NCBI RefSeq assembly: GCF_048403405.1
Contig: NZ_CP183132.1
Strand: one strand, 5' to 3'
DNA: 6,055 bases
Origin: Escherichia coli
GTDB taxonomy: Bacteria > Pseudomonadota > Gammaproteobacteria > Enterobacterales > Enterobacteriaceae
Below are positions 1 to 6,055 of this stretch, one piece after another. Numbering within the stretch: the first letter of the stretch is position 1; the number at the start of each line of letters is the position of its first letter. Made by a program: the position numbers and the translations under genes. A model generated the notes under the pieces. That model had not been told where the DNA came from. It saw nothing but the letters and a program-made list of their open reading frames with translations, and did no database searches.

Positions 1-2
1 TC

Positions 3-31
3 TTGAGATCCTTTTTTTCTGCGCGTAATCT
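3..31 (+). promoter_or_regulatory. RNA II (primer RNA) promoter: -35 TTGAGA (3-8), 17-bp spacer, -10 TAATCT (26-31)
   Basis: Seen in sequence: hexamers with 17-bp spacing about 7 nt upstream of the predicted RNA II 5' end. Established knowledge: the region matches, from memory, the RNA II promoter of ColE1/pMB1 replicons (pBR322 ...ttgagatcctttttttctgcgcgtaatctgctgc...). Confidence 0.6.
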
Positions 32-37
32 GCTGCC

Positions 38-144
38 TGTAAACGAAAAAACCGCCTTGCAGGGCGGTTTGATCGAAGGTTAAGTCAGCTTGCAGACTGC
101 TTAACCAGGTAACTGTCTTATGCGAGACGAGTCACCAAAATTGT
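38..144 (-). ncRNA. RNAI: RNA I antisense copy-number control RNA (about 107 nt)
   Basis: Minus-strand transcript complementary to the 5' end of RNA II. Its 3' end coincides with a GC-rich hairpin (ccgccctgcaaggcgg) followed by a T-run on the minus strand at about 46-70, i.e. an intrinsic terminator. Boundaries by analogy with the 108-nt pBR322 RNA I. Confidence 0.7.
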
Positions 145-628
145 TCTTCTAGTGTAGCCGCACTCCGGCAGCCACTTCAAGTACTCTCTAAATATCTCGC
201 ACATGACTTTTACCAATGGCTGCTGCCAGTGGCGCTTTGTGGTGTCTTTTCCGGGTTGGACCCAAGAGAACAGTTACCGGAGAAGGCGCAGCAGTCGGGC
301 TGAACGGGGGGTTCCTGCATACAGCCCAGCCCGGAGCGAACTGCCTAAGTCGCCCCGAGATACCAGAAGACGTGAGCTATGAGAAAGCGCCACGTGTCCC
401 GTAAGGGAGAAAGGCGGAAAAGGTATCCGGTAATCGATATGGCGGGAACGTGGGGGCGCAGGAGGGAGCGATTCACCGGAAACGGTGATGATCTTTAAGC
501 CACGTCGGGTTTCGCCACCGCTGGCGGATTTCATGGTTGAGCCGCAAGGCTCCCACAGATGCACCGAAAAAGTGTCTGTTTTGTGAAGTCCGTCAGGGGG
601 GCGGAGCCTATGGAAAAAGCGCCTCCGG
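39..628 (+). ncRNA. RNAII: RNA II pre-primer transcript of a ColE1-type origin; 3' end (RNA-DNA transition) approximate
   Basis: Start placed at G39 by analogy with the pBR322 RNA II start (GCAAAC; here GTAAAC). The downstream sequence is collinear with the ColE1/pMB1 primer region, including ...gtcaggggggcggagcctatggaaaaa... just before the expected transition point. End not determined precisely. Confidence 0.65.
151..180 (-). promoter_or_regulatory. RNA I promoter: -35 TTGAAG (complement of 175-180), 17-bp spacer, -10 TACACT (complement of 151-156)
   Basis: Seen in sequence on the minus strand; the spacing and hexamers resemble the pBR322 RNA I promoter as I recall it. Confidence 0.55.
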
Positions 629-650
629 CGCGGCCTTTCCCGGGGTTTCG
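585..650 (+). other. oriV: approximate RNA II to DNA transition region of the ColE1-type origin
   Basis: Lies about 550-600 nt downstream of the RNA II start and contains ...ctatggaaaaagcgcctccggcgcggcctttcc..., homologous to the pBR322 origin segment (...tatggaaaaacgccagcaacgcggcc...). No Rep protein gene is present, consistent with host Pol I / RNase H priming. Confidence 0.55.
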
Positions 651-849
651 TTTTTTGCGTACATGTTCTTTCCTGGTTTATCCCCGGGTTCTGTGGATAA
701 CAGGGTTAGCGTTTTTGAGAAAGGAGAGTCCGCTCGCCGCAGCCGAACGACCGAGCGTAGCGAGTCAGTGAGCGAGGAAGCGGAAGAGCGCCTGAACTGG
801 CATTTTCTCCTTACGCATCTGTGCGGCATTTCACACCGGACATGGCGCA

Positions 850-915
850 CTTTTCATACAATCCGCACTGATGCCGAATGGTTAAGCCAGTATACACTCC
901 GCTATCGCTACGTGA
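850..915 (-). other. bom/oriT-like region (origin of transfer with the relaxase nic site), approximate
   Basis: The sequence ...tgatgccgaatggttaagccagtatacactccgctatcgctacgtgactgg... is near-identical to the pBR322 bom region (...tgatgccgcatagttaagccagtatacactcc...) read on the opposite strand. It sits between oriV and rom as in pMB1/ColE1. Exact nic position not determined. Confidence 0.45.
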
Positions 916-1035
916 CTGGGTCAGGGCTTCGCCCCGACACCCCAAAGGTCAACGGCCTGACGCGCCCTGGCGGGCTTGTCTGCTCCCGGCATCCGCTCAC
1001 AGACAAGCTGTGACCGTCTCCGGGAGCTGCATGTG

Positions 1036-1227
1036 TCAGCGGTTTTCACCGTCATCCCCGAAGCGTGCGAGGCAACTGCGGTAAAGCTCATCGGCGTGGT
1101 CGTGAAGCGATTCACAGATGTCTGCCTGTTCATCCGCGTCCAGTTCGTTGAGCTTCTCCAGCAGCGTTAATGTCTGGCCTCTGATGAAGCGGGCCATGTT
1201 AAGGGCGGTTTTTTCCTGTTTGGTCAC
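1036..1227 (-). CDS. rom: Rom/Rop, the RNA I - RNA II pairing modulator (63 aa, GTG start)
   Basis: The minus-strand ORF 1036-1299 contains VTKQEKTALNMARFIRGQTLTLLEKLNELDADEQADICESLHDHADELYRSCLARFGDDGENR, near-identical to pBR322 Rop as I recall it (MTKQEKTALNMARFIRSQ...GDDGENL). The true start is the GTG at complement 1225-1227, as in pBR322, not the upstream ATG of the 87-aa ORF. Confidence 0.9.
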   Translation of the reverse strand: MTKQEKTALNMARFIRGQTLTLLEKLNELDADEQADICESLHDHADELYRSCLARFGDDGENR

Positions 1228-1258
1228 TGATGCCTCCGTGTAAGGGGGGGTTCTGTTC

Positions 1259-1615
1259 ATGGGGGTAATGATACCGATGAAACGCGAGAGGATGCTCACG
1301 ATACGGGTTACTGATGATGAACATGCCCGGTTACTGGAACGCTGTGAGGGTAAACAACTGGCGGTATGGATGCGGCGGGTCTGCCTGGGTGAGCCGGTTG
1401 CCCGTTCCGGGAAGCTGCCGACACTGGCACCGCCGTTACTGCGTCAGCTGGCCGCCATCGGGAATAACCTTAACCAGACAGCGAGGAAGGTGAACAGCGG
1501 GCAGTGGTCTTCCGGTGACCGGGTTCAGGTGGTGGCCGCACTGATGGCCATCGGGGATGAGCTGCGCCGGCTGCGTCTGGCGGTCAGGGAACAGGGGGCG
1601 CGGGATGATAGTTAA
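1259..1615 (+). CDS. mbeC: MbeC/MobC-type relaxosome accessory protein
   Basis: The translation (...MLTIRVTDDEHARLLERCEGKQLAVWMRRVCLGEPVARSGKLPTLAPPLLRQLAAIGNNLNQTARKVNSGQW...) matches ColE1-family MbeC; the truncated homologous stretch follows rop in pBR322. Strong SD (aaggggggg, about 8 nt) precedes ATG 1259; alternative in-frame starts at 1277 and 1292 would give 112 or 107 aa. The stop overlaps the mbeA start. Confidence 0.75.
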   Translation: MGVMIPMKRERMLTIRVTDDEHARLLERCEGKQLAVWMRRVCLGEPVARSGKLPTLAPPLLRQLAAIGNNLNQTARKVNSGQWSSGDRVQVVAALMAIGDELRRLRLAVREQGARDDS

Positions 1616-3170
1616 GTTTCATGCCAGGGGAAAAGGTGGTGGCAGTGGTCCGGTTGATTACCTGCTGGGAAGGGAGCGTAACCGGGAAGGGGCAACGGTG
1701 CTTCAGGGGAATCCGGAAGAGGTCCGGGAACTCATCGATGCCACGCCATTTGCGAAGAAATACACGTCAGGTGTTCTGTCGTTCGCGGAGAAGGAGCTGC
1801 CGCCTGGAGGGCGTGAAAAAGTGATGGCGAGCTTTGAGCGTGTACTGATGCCCGGTCTCGAGAAAAATCAGTACAGCATCCTGTGGGTGGAGCACCAGGA
1901 CAAGGGACGGCTTGAGCTGAATTTTGTCATTCCGAACATGGAGCTACAGACCGGAAAACGCCTCCAGCCGTACTACGACCGGGCAGACAGGCCGAGAATT
2001 GATGCCTGGCAGACGCTGGTGAATCACCATTACGGTCTGCATGACCCCAACGCCCCGGAGAACCGCCGGACGCTGACCCTTCCTGATAACCTGCCGGAAA
2101 CGAAACAGGCGCTTGCTGAGGGCGTCACACGCGGGATAGACGCGCTTTACCATGCCGGAGAGATAAAAGGCCGTCAGGATGTGATTCAGGCGCTCACAGA
2201 GGCGGGGCTTGAAGTGGTCAGGGTGACGCGAAGCAGTATCAGCATTGCAGACCCGAACGGCGGGAGGAATATCAGACTGAAAGGAGCGTTTTATGAGCAA
2301 TCTTTTACAGACGGGCGCGGAGTTCGAGAAAAAGCTGAAAGAGAGAGCCGAATCTACAGAGAAAATGCTGAACGACGAGTTCAGGAAGCTCGAAGAATCT
2401 GTAAACAGGGAACTGACCTCAAACGAATCTTTAATCAGGAACGCTATCAACGACCATACAACAGCCCTGAAAGAACTGCTGGAGAGGTATCAGAAAACGA
2501 CCGTCGATACGATGGACGCGCACTGGAAAACCGTACTGAAAATGAGCGTGAAACGCTGGCTGTGGCTGATTATCGTCTCAGTACTGATGTTTGCCACGAC
2601 CGGGAGTCTGCTGTGGTACCAGGGCATGAAGATAAACGCGAATATGAATATTCTCCGCGAGCAGAAAGAGAGTCTGGAGAAGCTGAACGCGAAGACATGG
2701 GGCGTGCGTTATCACGAGGACAGCAACGGACGTTTTCTGGTGTTGCCGAAGGGGATGAAAGCCGAAACGAACTGGACGAAGGACAACGGCAAACTGAACG
2801 CAGTGAGACTGGTGCAGGAGTGACAGAGCATGACGGAGCTGGAAAGACATTTGCTGAACGCATTAGAGCAACTGCAACAGGACTATATGCAGCGGCTGAA
2901 CGAATGGGAGAACGCCTTCGTGGAATTGCAGAAAATGTTTTCGCTTACGCAACGGGACAACGCGATGCTGAACGGGCGAGTCATGCAGTTGAGTCAGCAG
3001 GTGCAGCACTTGAGCGAGCGGACAGAACGCTTGAGCCAGTTATACAGCGAGAACAGGAGATAAGGGATGAACGGCTGATGCAGGAACGCGAACATGAGTT
3101 ATCTCTGGAGCGGGAGCGTCAGCCGGAAATCCAGGAGCGGACACTGGATGGCCCTTCGCTGGGATGGTGA
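1605..3170 (+). CDS. mbeA: MbeA relaxase (MOB-HEN family), 521 aa
   Basis: N-terminus MIVKFHARGKGGGSGPVDYLLG... contains the catalytic Tyr19 and the HEN motif (H97, E104, N106 in ...WVEHQDKGRLELNFVIPN...) described for ColE1 MbeA. SD agggggcg lies 5-6 nt upstream of ATG 1605. The longer 537-aa ORF from 1557 is an upstream extension running through the end of mbeC. Confidence 0.9.
   Translation: MIVKFHARGKGGGSGPVDYLLGRERNREGATVLQGNPEEVRELIDATPFAKKYTSGVLSFAEKELPPGGREKVMASFERVLMPGLEKNQYSILWVEHQDKGRLELNFVIPNMELQTGKRLQPYYDRADRPRIDAWQTLVNHHYGLHDPNAPENRRTLTLPDNLPETKQALAEGVTRGIDALYHAGEIKGRQDVIQALTEAGLEVVRVTRSSISIADPNGGRNIRLKGAFYEQSFTDGRGVREKAERESRIYRENAERRVQEARRICKQGTDLKRIFNQERYQRPYNSPERTAGEVSENDRRYDGRALENRTENERETLAVADYRLSTDVCHDRESAVVPGHEDKREYEYSPRAERESGEAEREDMGRALSRGQQRTFSGVAEGDESRNELDEGQRQTERSETGAGVTEHDGAGKTFAERIRATATGLYAAAERMGERLRGIAENVFAYATGQRDAERASHAVESAGAALERADRTLEPVIQREQEIRDERLMQEREHELSLERERQPEIQERTLDGPSLGW
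2293..2823 (+). CDS. mbeB: MbeB mobilization protein (176 aa), nested in a different frame inside mbeA
   Basis: ORF with a good SD (aaggag, 6 nt upstream of ATG 2293) and one hydrophobic segment (WLWLIIVSVLMFATTGSLLWY). The nested position inside mbeA matches the ColE1 mbe operon. Confidence 0.8.
   Translation: MSNLLQTGAEFEKKLKERAESTEKMLNDEFRKLEESVNRELTSNESLIRNAINDHTTALKELLERYQKTTVDTMDAHWKTVLKMSVKRWLWLIIVSVLMFATTGSLLWYQGMKINANMNILREQKESLEKLNAKTWGVRYHEDSNGRFLVLPKGMKAETNWTKDNGKLNAVRLVQE
2830..3063 (+). CDS. mbeD: MbeD mobilization/entry-exclusion protein (77 aa), nested inside the 3' part of mbeA
   Basis: ORF immediately after mbeB, with SD aggag about 9 nt upstream of ATG 2830; its position matches mbeD of the ColE1 family. 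Product inferred from gene order and overlap, not from recalled protein sequence. Confidence 0.65.
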   Translation: MTELERHLLNALEQLQQDYMQRLNEWENAFVELQKMFSLTQRDNAMLNGRVMQLSQQVQHLSERTERLSQLYSENRR

Positions 3171-3232
3171 AACCATGAAAAATGACGTGTTCAGTGGATT
3201 AAGGCGGGCTAATGTGGCCTGTAGCATCTGGT

Positions 3233-3250
3233 TGCATAGGTATTCATGCG
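3233..3250. promoter_or_regulatory. Putative ArgR box within the cer accessory region
   Basis: TGCATAGGTATTCATG resembles the ARG-box consensus (TNTGAAT-4W-ATTCANA) with mismatches and lies about 100 bp upstream of the XerC arm, the expected position in cer-type sites. Confidence 0.4.
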
Positions 3251-3346
3251 GTTAAAATTTATCAGGTGCGATCGCGGCAGTTTTTCGGGTGGTTTGTTGC
3301 CATTTTTACCTGTCTGCTGCCGTGATCGCACCGAACGCGTTTTGGC

Positions 3347-3375
3347 GGTGCGTACAATGCGACGTTATGGTAAAT
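3347..3375 (+). other. XerC/XerD recombination core: GGTGCGTACAA (XerC arm) - TGCGACG (central region) - TTATGGTAAAT (XerD arm)
   Basis: Seen in sequence. Both 11-bp arms are identical to those I recall for ColE1 cer; the central region is different and 7 bp long here. Confidence 0.75.
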
Positions 3376-3465
3376 GGAGCGGATTTTCAGGAAGGAGTGA
3401 TACTAACAACTCGAACACTGTGCAAATAATGATTTTTTTAAAATATCGGTAACGATAATAAATTA

Positions 3466-3503
3466 TTTCGTTTTACGCCGGTAATAAATATAATGTAGTT
3501 TCA
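3466..3503 (+). promoter_or_regulatory. Candidate sigma70 promoter for the cargo operon (-10 TATAAT at 3489-3494; weak -35; AT-rich upstream)
   Basis: A perfect TATAAT hexamer lies about 50 nt upstream of ATG 3544 in an AT-rich tract (taataaattatttcgttttacgccggtaataaatataatg). No good -35 at 17-bp spacing; a second TATATA at 3505-3510 is also possible. Confidence 0.3.
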
Positions 3504-3543
3504 GTATATAAAAAAATATATGAGGTGTCTTGTGGGAGCTTTC

Positions 3544-4596
3544 ATGAATCTTCAACAACGTATAAATAAACTACCACAATTATCATCCAGTTTTTCATTT
3601 GGAAAAGATATTGATAATATTCATTCATTTATCTTTAACGAAACTTCTAAAGATAAAATTGAAGATTTACTAAGAAAATGGGTGTCAGGCAATCAGCCCT
3701 GTGTATTTGGTAAATTGGCAAGCAAGAAAATTAAAGGGCTTGATTTCCATTTATCTATTGTAAATAGCCCCCAACTATATAATGATGATGGTCATTTGTT
3801 TGATTTTTTGCGTAATGAAAGAGTTCGTTTTAAAGAACGCGCAAGAAGAGGAGAGGTCAGTGCGCATCTCATTTATTTTATTCATCCACAACTTGCCTTT
3901 GCTCGTCCATCAGAAGAGTTAGTGGACATACAAAAATATATTTGTTCGCTGCATATGCCAGAGTGCTATCCAATAAAAGAGGATGTTATTTATACTGAAA
4001 GCGTACCATTTCAGGATAAAGATGGGCTAAAAATATATAAGGCTGGTGTTAATGTTTTTTACTCTTCTGCTCATAGAACAAGAAATCATGATAGAAGAAT
4101 ACCAGGGGGAATACTTATTTCTGTAAATGCCCCGGGGCATTTTATGAGGCTGGCGATAGAAAAAGGTTTCTATAAAGATCAAGAACAAGCGTTAGCGGAT
4201 ATTCGTAACATGACTATTCAGTCTGTTGGTAAGGGTGGGTATTCACATCCGGAAGGGATTTCTACAACATGGCATTCAGAATCTAATTTGGATCGTTTTG
4301 GATGCCCAGTGCACACCGGTAATAGTTCTTATTACAGCGGTTTTTATCATACTGATGTATTAATTCCAGGAGAATTAACTAAGGATGAAAGATTGCTCCA
4401 TGAAATAGAAAATAGTGATCCAATGATCTTCAACTGGAATGTATTGTTTTATGTTTCATTAGAAGAGTTTCCTATAGATGATCCTTATTATGGAGAGTTT
4501 ATTGGTATTCCTGTAGATGATGCATCTATGTTTTTTAACTCCTTTCAACCAAGGAAATTTGAAAACAAACCCCTTTATGAGAAAGAGGATGATTAA
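3544..4596 (+). CDS. Hypothetical soluble protein, 350 aa, family not recognised (first gene of the AT-rich cargo operon)
   Basis: Long ORF (track 3520-4596) in AT-rich DNA. ATG 3544 is preferred over ATG 3520 because of the SD gggag 5 nt upstream. No signal peptide or hydrophobic helices evident. Conserved-looking segments include NAPGHFMRLAIEKGFY and DRFGCPVHTGNSSYYSGFYHTDVLIPGE. Confidence 0.75.
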   Translation: MNLQQRINKLPQLSSSFSFGKDIDNIHSFIFNETSKDKIEDLLRKWVSGNQPCVFGKLASKKIKGLDFHLSIVNSPQLYNDDGHLFDFLRNERVRFKERARRGEVSAHLIYFIHPQLAFARPSEELVDIQKYICSLHMPECYPIKEDVIYTESVPFQDKDGLKIYKAGVNVFYSSAHRTRNHDRRIPGGILISVNAPGHFMRLAIEKGFYKDQEQALADIRNMTIQSVGKGGYSHPEGISTTWHSESNLDRFGCPVHTGNSSYYSGFYHTDVLIPGELTKDERLLHEIENSDPMIFNWNVLFYVSLEEFPIDDPYYGEFIGIPVDDASMFFNSFQPRKFENKPLYEKEDD

Positions 4597-4597
4597 T

Positions 4598-5464
4598 ATG
4601 ATTAAAGGAATGCTTTTTGCTTTTTTAGCAGCGTTCTCATGGGGGGCAGCTATCGTAATGAGCAAAAAAGGAGTTGAAGAACTAGATGCCGGAGGGGTGT
4701 TTTTCTGGCAGATTTGTAGTGCAGTAATACTATCTTGGATAGTTCTTTTTATAAAAAGAAAAAAACTCCCATTAAACTCAAAAGCGATACTTGCTTATGC
4801 GACAGGCGTTTTTGAACCATTCTTAGCGTATACTTTTACACTCTACGGACTTTATTTTATTTCAGCAGGAAGCGCATCAATTATTTTTTCACTTGAATCA
4901 GTGTTTATATTGGTGTTGTCTGTTCTTATTTGCTCAGTTAAAATTAATTCCCCGCAATATTTTATATTGTTCCTTATAGGTGCAATTGTTGGCAGTATTT
5001 TGGTAGCCTTGCCAGACATCAGTAATGGATCGAATAATATTGTTGGATATTGTCTTGTTGTTGCCGGTGTGTTATCGGCAGCATTTTATGTTGTTATATC
5101 GTCTCGCCTTATTAAATCGTTTGAGCCTATCACATTATTGAGCGGACAGTTGACATTCTCCCTTATACTGTCATCGCTCTTTATTTTTATATCTAAATCA
5201 TCAATTTATCTTCCGTTGGAATCCGTGATTATTGTTTTTTCATCTGGAATATTACAATATTTTTTAGCTTTTTGTTTTTACTTGAACTCCTTGCGTTGGC
5301 TCCCAGTTCATTTGGCAGGGATAATGTTGTACTTTATTCCGCTAGTTGCATTATTTTTGTCATGGTTGTTTTTGGATGAACAATTCACATTCTTACAGGG
5401 GGTAGGATTTATTGTAACTGTGCTAAGTGTATATTTTCTTAACAGAAAATACTCAGAGGAGTAA
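4598..5464 (+). CDS. DMT-superfamily (EamA-like) integral membrane transporter, 288 aa, about 10 predicted TM helices
   Basis: About ten hydrophobic segments of 18-23 residues in a 5+5 arrangement, with an N-terminal LFAFLAAFSWGAAIVMSKKG typical of EamA-domain proteins. Start ATG 4598 has SD aagagga 8 nt upstream and lies 2 nt after the stop of the upstream gene; the track ORF from 4517 is an N-terminal over-extension. Confidence 0.8.
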   Translation: MIKGMLFAFLAAFSWGAAIVMSKKGVEELDAGGVFFWQICSAVILSWIVLFIKRKKLPLNSKAILAYATGVFEPFLAYTFTLYGLYFISAGSASIIFSLESVFILVLSVLICSVKINSPQYFILFLIGAIVGSILVALPDISNGSNNIVGYCLVVAGVLSAAFYVVISSRLIKSFEPITLLSGQLTFSLILSSLFIFISKSSIYLPLESVIIVFSSGILQYFLAFCFYLNSLRWLPVHLAGIMLYFIPLVALFLSWLFLDEQFTFLQGVGFIVTVLSVYFLNRKYSEE

Positions 5465-5633
5465 CATTCTGTTCAGGATTGCCCCCCGGCCTCCATCGAT
5501 ACCGTGCCAAATGCACGTAAAAAACGGGAGCGTTTCTGGTGTCGGAATGTAACCAAGGGGGTCAGAGGCGCGCTAAAACGCTCTCAGGGGAGTCAAATAG
5601 AGACGTTTGTAACAAAAAGATCAAAGGATCCTC

Positions 5634-5662
5634 TTGAGATCCTTTTTTTCTGCGCGTAATCT
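5634..5662 (+). promoter_or_regulatory. RNA II promoter, second copy of 3-31 in the terminal overlap
   Basis: Identical sequence at offset 5631. This copy shows the true context on the circle: the promoter lies about 170 bp downstream of the cargo transporter gene. Confidence 0.6.
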
Positions 5663-5668
5663 GCTGCC

Positions 5669-5775
5669 TGTAAACGAAAAAACCGCCTTGCAGGGCGGTT
5701 TGATCGAAGGTTAAGTCAGCTTGCAGACTGCTTAACCAGGTAACTGTCTTATGCGAGACGAGTCACCAAAATTGT
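5669..5775 (-). ncRNA. RNAI: RNA I, second copy of 38-144 in the terminal overlap
   Basis: Identical sequence at offset 5631. Confidence 0.7.
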
Positions 5776-6055
5776 TCTTCTAGTGTAGCCGCACTCCGGC
5801 AGCCACTTCAAGTACTCTCTAAATATCTCGCACATGACTTTTACCAATGGCTGCTGCCAGTGGCGCTTTGTGGTGTCTTTTCCGGGTTGGACCCAAGAGA
5901 ACAGTTACCGGAGAAGGCGCAGCAGTCGGGCTGAACGGGGGGTTCCTGCATACAGCCCAGCCCGGAGCGAACTGCCTAAGTCGCCCCGAGATACCAGAAG
6001 ACGTGAGCTATGAGAAAGCGCCACGTGTCCCGTAAGGGAGAAAGGCGGAAAAGGT
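5670..6055 (+). ncRNA. RNAII: RNA II, 5' part, second copy of 39-424 truncated by the window end
   Basis: Identical sequence at offset 5631. Confidence 0.65.

Follow-up and report, generated by a model that had tools for sequence, protein, structure and literature searches.

A cargo gene pair on a ColE1-type Escherichia coli plasmid is predicted to encode an N-hydroxylase-type enzyme and its exporter

The 6055-base stretch of Escherichia coli DNA analyzed here (the window) is a circular plasmid of 5631 bp read past its own start. This ColE1-type plasmid, identical to pJJ1886_3 of the E. coli ST131 strain JJ1886 (NC_022662.1), carries a cargo of two adjoining genes, of which gene 1 encodes a protein of 350 residues and gene 2 a transporter of the DMT superfamily. 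With moderate confidence, we read this cargo as an N-hydroxylase-type enzyme combined with an exporter of its product. What the cargo makes and secretes would most likely be an N-oxygenated amine or guanidine, and the “cryptic” plasmid would then probably have a chemical function.

Gene 1 was matched by nothing in Pfam, NCBIfam, PADLOC, or the sequences of the PDB (phmmer and profile searches), in keeping with an earlier note on this DNA, made from the letters alone, that had called the protein unassignable. Pfam gave no match to gene 1 even at E ≤ 10 and none at E ≤ 0.001 to 42 relatives; a “DUF3396” label on two relatives in the AlphaFold database (AFDB) did not reappear when related family members were scanned with Pfam, and it was set aside. 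A search of the literature by plasmid name and protein accessions returned no functional study of the plasmid or the two proteins. Gene 1 matched 229 representative proteins at E ≤ 0.001 (one per 50%-identity cluster), and its family comprises 96 clusters at 90% identity, from Gammaproteobacteria, Rhizobiales, Burkholderiales, and Actinobacteria. Acidobacteria, Planctomycetes, and Bradyrhizobium have a distant subfamily, of about 25% identity (loci L042-L048 and L051); in L042, a deoxyhypusine-synthase-like gene lies nearby.

Alignments of the family (A1, 42 sequences; A2, 39 sequences) revealed invariant motifs in the N-terminal part (W46 and Q51-P52-C53-x-F55-G), the middle (A176-H-x-T-x-N-H-D-R-R-x-P-G-G189, N195, and G198-H199), and the C-terminal part (S227-x-G-x-G-G232, W243-H, and Y264-S-x-x-Y-H-T-D-V-L-x-P275). 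C53, D183, R185, and N195 are invariant in both alignments, and H199 is nearly so. Across the distant subfamily, the residues that are also invariant are C53, D183, R185, N195, Y264, D271, and Y303.

The AlphaFold2 model of gene 1 has a predicted local distance difference test score (pLDDT) of 88.2 and a predicted template modeling score (pTM) of 0.90. When this model was compared with the PDB using Foldseek, the top four matches were all structures of AglA (E of about 1e-2), and in AFDB50 the first match outside the family was a protein annotated as YqcI/YcgG (E 9e-3, probability 0.98). Heme-thiolate enzymes were the only structural relatives found, and gene 1 is thus predicted to have the AglA-type α/β “sandwich” fold. 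AglA (PDB 9ub3) is the first solved heme enzyme of the YqcI/YcgG type and catalyzes guanidine N-hydroxylation; the thiolate of its Cys44 ligates the heme iron, Arg166, Lys196, and Arg200 hold the propionates, and its authors found no structural relatives (PMC12866846). The YqcI/YcgG family (PF08892; “FPC/CPF motif”) contains the heme-thiolate guanidine N-hydroxylases AglA, DcsA, GntA, ChmN, AmbT, and Mhr24.

For comparison, we modeled a true YqcI/YcgG protein, P0253 (pLDDT 85). The two models have their secondary structure elements in identical order, and the residues conserved at matching places are Cys, Arg-Arg, Asn, and His (Table 1). Like C71 in P0253, C53 sits one to three residues ahead of helix 2, which is where YqcI/YcgG proteins have the conserved N-terminal Cys of their FPC motif. 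The spacing between this Cys and the Arg is 122 residues in both AglA and P0253 and 131-132 in gene 1 (R184/R185, in the loop before strand 4). In a metagenomic fusion protein, P0100 (622 residues), a gene-1-like domain is linked to a bona fide YqcI_YcgG domain by Pfam (4.4e-47). Downstream of its gene (L052/L053 2530-4398) lie genes for an unknown 347-residue protein, an exporter of the MatE family, an OprB porin, and a protein with a MOSC domain. MOSC enzymes reduce N-hydroxylated compounds.

Judged from these models, gene 1 probably works like a YqcI/YcgG enzyme, as a very distant relative and not as a member of PF08892. We infer that its family is a highly divergent branch of the YqcI/YcgG-type heme-thiolate N-hydroxylases. 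Gene 1 exceeds the YqcI/YcgG proteins by about 100 residues and has an additional segment at the N terminus and, at the C terminus, about 120 residues with invariant motifs of their own (SxGNGG and YSxxYHTDVLxP). Its genomic contexts suggest polyamine, agmatine, and lysine-type amines as substrates as much as arginine.

Several observations weigh against this assignment and against the proposal that is built on it. The Foldseek scores are marginal, and no sequence method (Pfam, hhalign, or hidden Markov model, HMM) ties gene 1 to YqcI/YcgG: hhalign gave a probability of 0.2-0.3%, and an HMM made from YqcI/YcgG proteins matched only the fusion P0100. The best of these nonsignificant hhalign alignments do set Cys against Cys. 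A first hhalign match, with a probability of 94.6%, was an artifact of a fusion fragment, P0241, in the target alignment; since nothing significant was left once P0241 had been removed, we do not claim sequence homology to YqcI/YcgG. The proposed equivalence of Cys53 and AglA Cys44 is drawn from topology and spacing, and for Lys196 and Arg200 of AglA, gene 1 shows no clear conserved equivalents. There is no reductase gene in the module or the window, whereas AglA has a native PDR/VanB reductase. As to the partner and the contexts described below, sequence does not reveal which way a DMT protein transports; the correlation between the pairwise identities of the two proteins (Mantel r 0.75, 0/5000 permutations) is partly expected of any two genes in shared genomes; a small or atypical N-hydroxylase could have been overlooked by heuristic gene calling in high-GC loci; and an operon of 34% G+C may be silenced in E. 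coli. Finally, the many invariant His, Asp, and Tyr residues of gene 1 could form a non-heme metal site.

The last point leads to a different chemistry for the same layout of enzyme and exporter, one in which gene 1, with Cys53 as a nucleophile or with a His/Asp/Tyr metal site, would hydrolyze or oxidize an amine or guanidino compound or modify it by a transfer reaction, and the DMT protein would export what is formed. The invariant H177, H182, D183, D271, and Y264 and the nearly invariant H269 could bind a metal, Iyer et al. first proposed that the Cys conserved in YqcI/YcgG proteins serves in thioester anchoring, and guanidino and amine enzymes are neighbors of gene 1 homologs in other phyla; the lack of significant profile similarity to YqcI/YcgG points the same way. 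We nevertheless consider a non-heme gene 1 unlikely, because the only structural relatives found for it are heme-thiolate enzymes, its Cys and Arg-Arg loop appear to be placed like the heme ligands of AglA, and the module seems to take the place of an N-hydroxylase in clusters of the hydrazine-synthetase type.

Gene 2 has the roughly 10 transmembrane helices expected of the DMT superfamily and EamA family, and thereby the same architecture as the DMT/EamA exporters (E. coli EamA, YddG; TIGR00950). Its match to TIGR00950 (“2A78”; E 1.2e-15, 57.7 bits) lies under the cutoff of 230, and no subfamily could be assigned: gene 2 scores well under every cutoff of the curated DMT subfamilies and represents a distinct subfamily whose defining trait is that it is linked to the gene 1 family. 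The best matches of gene 2, which are weak, are to transporters of carboxylates, amino acids, and amines, and Pfam EamA (PF00892) is recorded on orthologous neighbors of the gene 2 type. Gene 2 is predicted to be the exporter of the gene 1 product.

To survey partners, 43 genomic loci encoding gene 1 relatives were collected, and their open reading frames (ORFs) were searched with iterated profiles; in the high-GC actinobacterial loci, the ORF calls are heuristic and filtered by third-position G+C (GC3). A gene-2-type DMT gene is present in 33 of the 34 close-subfamily loci with usable flanks, in both Proteobacteria and Actinobacteria. It stands directly downstream of the gene 1 homolog, often overlapping it, on the plasmids and in Edwardsiella, Algicola, and Burkholderiales; directly upstream in Pseudomonas and Affinibrenneria; and in divergent orientation, in some cases with a MarR gene in between, in Rhodopseudomonas, Ciceribacter, and Salinarimonas (Rhizobiales and relatives). 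In Actinobacteria, it lies 3 to 6 kb downstream on the same strand, with the exception of Microbispora, whose DMT gene is upstream and on the other strand. The loci of the distant subfamily have no adjacent gene-2-type DMT gene.

The genes around the pair in other phyla point to amine and guanidine metabolism. In a Lysobacterales metagenome-assembled genome, the gene 1 homolog and the DMT gene are preceded by genes for a LysA/arginine-decarboxylase-like pyridoxal phosphate (PLP) decarboxylase, a protein like deoxyhypusine synthase (matched best by the models for homospermidine biosynthesis and 1,9-bis(guanidino)-5-aza-nonane synthase), and an agmatinase (199 bits against a cutoff of 174). Catelliglobosispora, Kibdelosporangium, Hamadaea, and Microbispora combine the gene 1 homolog with a PLP decarboxylase, a member of the saccharopine-dehydrogenase family, the DMT protein, and a SARP regulator; two of these four also have an arginine dihydrolase/dimethylargininase (DDAH)-like gene. 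In three species of Streptomyces and in Amycolatopsis, the gene 1 homolog is accompanied by a 117-residue cupin, a 550-residue protein like methionyl-tRNA synthetase (MetRS), a flavin adenine dinucleotide (FAD) amine oxidase, a methyltransferase, and, farther away, the DMT protein. Near these loci are genes for a PotD/PotF-like binding protein, an aminobutyraldehyde dehydrogenase, an aminotransferase, or a fusion of S-adenosylmethionine decarboxylase and aminopropyltransferase. In Microbispora, a cupin-extended MetRS-like gene is close to the gene 1 homolog. A GNAT acetyltransferase gene adjoins the gene 1 homolog in Rhodopseudomonas, Algicola, and one metagenomic locus, and GNAT neighbors are frequent for the family, as they are in hydroxamate pathways. 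Sulfate-assimilation genes of the cysDN type near the module in Pseudomonas, as well as hem genes, a lysA-like decarboxylase gene, and cyaY in Algicola, were not conserved across loci and were dismissed as coincidental.

The cupin and MetRS-like proteins bear on the reaction. According to a preprint, such proteins are hydrazine synthetases, which join an amino acid to a hydroxylamine (bioRxiv 10.1101/2025.08.22.671884). The canonical trio spb38/39/40 encodes a flavin-dependent lysine N6-hydroxylase, an FAD oxidoreductase, and the synthetase (PMC12376268), and Iyer et al. found a monooxygenase beside these MetRS paralogs “without exception” (PMC2922099). Genes of the hydrazine-synthetase type surround gene 1 homologs in five actinobacterial loci (L020, L025, L027, L028, and L029), and in four of the five (Streptomyces and Amycolatopsis) the gene 1 homolog is directly upstream of the cupin and MetRS-like genes. 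No flavin N-monooxygenase was found among the annotated ORFs of the five loci. Since a gene 1 homolog stands beside the synthetase genes and the usual flavin enzyme was not found, the gene 1 family may supply the hydroxylamine, an argument of nonorthologous displacement that agrees with the independent evidence from the fold. The gene 1 homolog would take the position of the flavin N-hydroxylase in Streptomyces, Amycolatopsis, and Microbispora, the first two also having the FAD oxidoreductase. The role that gene 1 would share with the flavin amine N-hydroxylases (IucD, PvdA, and Spb38/AzsL, of siderophore and hydrazine-synthetase pathways) is one of functional analogy by gene position and not of homology, as gene 1 is predicted to be a heme-thiolate-like sandwich and not a Rossmann-fold flavoprotein. 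Hydrazine-synthetase genes of the Spb38/39/40 type are absent from the window, where the cargo consists of the enzyme and the transporter only.

The earlier note had left three functions side by side, namely small-molecule production and export, detoxification or efflux, and membrane-dependent defense. The first is favored here because the fold matches that of a biosynthetic N-hydroxylase and the DMT protein is a conserved partner across phyla, and also because a MatE protein takes the place of the DMT in one relative and the pair occurs inside operons of the polyamine, agmatine, and hydrazine-synthetase type. Defense gained no support, neither from PADLOC nor from a defense-island context.

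Some DMT members are importers, and the opposite direction of transport would yield a system of uptake or catabolism, in which the DMT protein imports an external amine or guanidine, for instance in the gut or in urine, and gene 1 oxidizes it as a nitrogen source or to neutralize it. Many carrier strains come from urine or the animal gut, MarR-type regulators adjoin the pair in Rhizobiales, and sequence does not fix the direction of a DMT protein. We regard this as distinctly unlikely. Export is favored over import because MatE, an exporter family, fills the transporter slot in the P0100 fusion locus and because the pair in other phyla sits in biosynthetic, regulator-controlled operons, with SARP regulators and biosynthetic genes accompanying it in Actinobacteria and Lysobacterales; in addition, the nearest named DMT models, YddG and EamA, are exporters.

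The mechanism that we propose for the N-hydroxylase and exporter is as follows. Gene 1 would be a cytoplasmic enzyme with Cys53 as the ligand of its heme iron and Arg184/Arg185 holding a propionate of the heme, and its C-terminal loops (228-350, with SxGNGG and YSxxYHTDV) would close the substrate pocket. It would use host heme and take electrons from the ferredoxin/flavodoxin system of the host. The predicted reaction is N-hydroxylation, or some other N-oxygenation, of a cationic nitrogen compound that is common in metabolism; candidates include arginine, agmatine, lysine, diamines, and polyamines. Gene 2, produced in step with gene 1 through the coupling of the two genes, would export the reactive, hydroxylamine-type product, which would both deliver the product outside and protect the producer.

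A further-reaching version is that gene 1 founds an unrecognized family of heme-thiolate N-oxygenases for which Pfam and NCBIfam have no model, that E. coli, Salmonella, and Klebsiella secrete a hydroxylamine derived from a core amine, and that the cargo is the small-molecule counterpart of the colicin genes that ColE1 has in this slot, with the DMT protein serving as exporter and as self-protection. Taken as a whole, this version is speculative and somewhat unlikely. Its product would be N-hydroxy-arginine, N-hydroxy-agmatine, N-hydroxy-lysine, or a hydroxylated di- or polyamine, and its targets would be competitors, iron, or host arginine and nitric oxide (NO) metabolism. The kind of system, a tailoring oxygenase with an exporter, is already known; what is new is the enzyme family, its predicted relation to the AglA fold, its fixed DMT partnership, and its presence on a very common clinical plasmid that has no other cargo.

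Pandemic E. coli ST131 and food-animal Salmonella have small ColE1-like plasmids that are usually dismissed as cryptic. The plasmid studied here, or its cargo, is present in about 2% of complete E. coli genomes, the cargo being under strong purifying selection. If the proposal is right, a widespread clinical plasmid would have a metabolic output with possible effects on competition, iron handling, or host arginine/NO chemistry. To the newly recognized non-P450 heme-thiolate N-hydroxylases, a second family would be added, one that sequence methods do not link to the first, with 229 representatives over Proteobacteria, Actinobacteria, Acidobacteria, and Planctomycetes, and clusters for hydrazine-synthetase and polyamine-derived natural products would gain an N-hydroxylase for which they can be mined.

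In PLSDB, 141 plasmids carry the 2-kb cargo at an identity of at least 99% (110 from Escherichia, 18 from Salmonella, six from Klebsiella, five uncultured, and two from Shigella), and the cargo was found in 118 of 5426 complete E. coli genomes, on a plasmid every time and never on the chromosome. Diverged copies of the pair (62-76% amino acid identity) are present on other plasmids and in Edwardsiella chromosomes, which hold the closest chromosomal copies (62%). A Salmonella plasmid with a diverged pair has a different replicase and a MobA/MobL relaxase, and a 43-kb E. coli plasmid contig with a 75% variant has toxin-antitoxin and ParA genes; three distinct plasmid backbones plus the Edwardsiella chromosome thus carry the pair. 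Against the 75% variant, genes 1 and 2 have ratios of nonsynonymous to synonymous substitution rates (dN/dS) of 0.095 and 0.118, respectively, which indicates that both genes are functional and diverging together.

The Edwardsiella pair has a gene like those for aspartate:alanine antiporters, accompanied by rybB, on one side and housekeeping genes on the other. In Edwardsiella, Pseudomonas, Affinibrenneria, and Paraburkholderia, the G+C content of the module is 8 to 13 points below that of its flanks, so that the module looks mobile there too. Small RNA genes are typical landmarks of horizontally acquired islands: in Edwardsiella hoshinae, about 0.8 kb separates the module from the rybB small RNA gene upstream of it (L011 7083-7161), and in a Burkholderiales genome the module is about 2 kb from a tRNA gene (L024 5886-5959). 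The 43-kb E. coli contig (L055) bears several toxin-antitoxin pairs and, at 5726-7619, a second, unrelated pair of an EamA transporter and a GFO/IDH/MocA oxidoreductase. Gene 1 also appears at 97-100% identity in assemblies labeled Tieghemostelium lacteum (a slime mold), Bacteroides, Faecalibacterium, Streptococcus parasanguinis, Rhizobium wenxiniae, and Pseudomonas sp., mostly on tiny contigs (A0A151Z2F1/A0A151Z2F0, A0A7J5NSK6, and A0A844DL93; L009, L010, L013, and L040); these copies are most likely contamination with E. coli plasmid and not true hosts.

Such a distribution would also suit a selectable trait of resistance or detoxification, with gene 1 inactivating an antimetabolite or xenobiotic and gene 2 pumping out the toxin or the product. 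A layout of enzyme plus pump is common among resistance determinants, several plasmid backbones carry the module, and an identity of at least 99% is kept on multicopy, mobilizable plasmids of clinical and food-animal isolates. Neither protein, however, matched NCBIfam, the resistance models of that library included, homologs elsewhere are found in biosynthetic-type operons and not in resistance islands, and the literature does not link these proteins to resistance, which makes this explanation very unlikely in our judgment.

Within the plasmid, the cargo stands out by its composition. The earlier note had put positions 3420-5470 at about 30-35% G+C by eye, and the computed value is 34.3%, against 54.8% for the remainder of the plasmid. 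Third-codon-position G+C is likewise low, at 23.6% in gene 1 and 30.8% in gene 2, compared with 49-73% in the mob genes. The drop in G+C starts just past the core of the cer site and ends at the stop codon of gene 2 (5464). The low-GC donor that had been suggested is plausible, but no donor was identified. The Edwardsiella module also has a lower G+C content than its flanks. The tight coupling of the two genes was confirmed (stop codon at 4594-4596, start codon at 4598), as was the description of the products as a soluble protein and a 10-helix DMT/EamA transporter: hydropathy analysis gave no hydrophobic segment in gene 1 and about 10 in gene 2, and RefSeq names the latter a DMT protein.

Gene 1 has a Shine-Dalgarno sequence, GGGAG, at 3534-3538. 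A longer gene 1 starting eight codons earlier, at the in-frame ATG at 3520, was rejected, as this start has no Shine-Dalgarno sequence and is unsupported by homologs and RefSeq. The mechanical ORF call for gene 2 begins at 4517, within gene 1. Upstream of gene 1, there is a weak sigma-70-like site at 3403-3430, and promoter-like sites in the leader are no more numerous than expected by chance. Rfam found no riboswitch upstream of gene 1 or in nine related loci, its matches across these regions being limited to RNAI, RybB, a tRNA, and AgrB, and a comparison of the diverged module copies showed no conserved upstream element. At 5623-5645, a hairpin with a T-run behind it could terminate the operon transcript.

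The backbone was correctly recognized in the earlier note as ColE1-like. The plasmid has an RNAI/RNAII origin, rop, mbe genes, and cer, with the cargo between cer and the origin; RNAI was identified by Rfam, and Rop, MobC, MbeB, and MbeD are annotated. ColE1 603-3938 aligns to window positions 1-3375 with 84.6% identity, and the remainder of the window has no ColE1 counterpart. The arc of ColE1 that is unmatched here carries exc2, exc1, and the lysis gene in the PLSDB gene table, so that the cargo does occupy the position of the colicin, immunity, and lysis cluster, as had been claimed; cea and imm, which are not in that table, also lie within this arc. The similarity to ColE1 stops at 3375, the final base of the XerD arm of the cer core, the XerC and XerD arms being assigned by analogy with the cer site of ColE1. 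The variable cargo thus starts at the Xer crossover site, which hints that this site may be where cargo modules are swapped. The central region of the core has seven bases here, compared with eight in ColE1 cer.

The location invites comparison with the colicin E1 cargo of ColE1 (exc1/exc2, cea, imm, and kil), with which the window cargo shares the type of backbone and the slot from cer to the origin; both would also be plasmid cargo that acts outside the cell. An anti-phage, exclusion, or bacteriocin-like module that replaces the colicin and exclusion genes would fit the slot and the AT-rich, horizontally mobile nature of the cargo. The two cargoes are nevertheless nonhomologous, one encoding a protein toxin and the other a predicted small-molecule enzyme and a transporter. 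No LexA-box-like (SOS) site was found near gene 1, there is no lysis or immunity gene, neither gene resembles colicin components, PADLOC returned zero families for either protein at E ≤ 1, and the chromosomal contexts are housekeeping or biosynthetic and not defense islands. We therefore consider a defense or bacteriocin module extremely improbable, and an N-hydroxylase-type enzyme with its exporter remains our preferred reading of the cargo.

Table 1. Features of the plasmid and matching structural elements of the gene 1 and P0253 models (H, helix; E, strand)
Feature	Position in window or gene 1 residues	Strand	P0253 residues	Remarks
RNAI	43-143 and 5674-5774	minus		Rfam 56.5 bits vs threshold 47
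cer-type Xer recombination core	3347..3375	+		GGTGCGTACAA-TGCGACG-TTATGGTAAAT; left border of variable cargo slot
AT-rich leader and promoter region of cargo operon	3376..3543	+		not conserved among diverged module copies
Gene 1	3544..4596	+		WP_001053268.1, RefSeq “hypothetical protein”; 350 aa, soluble
Translational-coupling junction	4583..4600	+		gene 2 Shine-Dalgarno AAGAGGA 4583-4589 in gene 1 end, TAA 4594-4596, one base, ATG 4598-4600
Gene 2	4598..5464	+		WP_001335763.1, RefSeq “DMT family transporter”; 288 aa
Spacer, cargo to replication origin	5465..5631	+		ordinary G+C; without ColE1 homology
Helix 1	H36-50		H51-65	
Cys	C53		C71	
Helix 2	H54-60		H72-80	
Strand 1	E68-73		E83-90	
Helix 3	H82-101		H94-113	
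Strand 2	E107-113		E120-127	
Helix 4	H124-137		H133-152	
Strand(s) 3	E151-173		E172-185	
Arg loop	R179/R184/R185		R190/R193/R194	
Strand 4, Asn at end	E189-195, N195		E199-204, N203	
His	H199		H205	
After His	two helices, long loops		two helices, long loops	

Since the two ends of the window are identical (1-424 and 5632-6055), RNAI and several small ORFs are seen twice. The MobC-type protein (WP_000955999.1) does not differ from that of ColE1, although DNA identity between the two backbones is only about 85%. An ORF of 537 residues for the relaxase, at 1557-3170, is not in the PLSDB gene table, and the annotated mbeB (2293-2823) and mbeD (2830-3063) ORFs fall within its coordinates.

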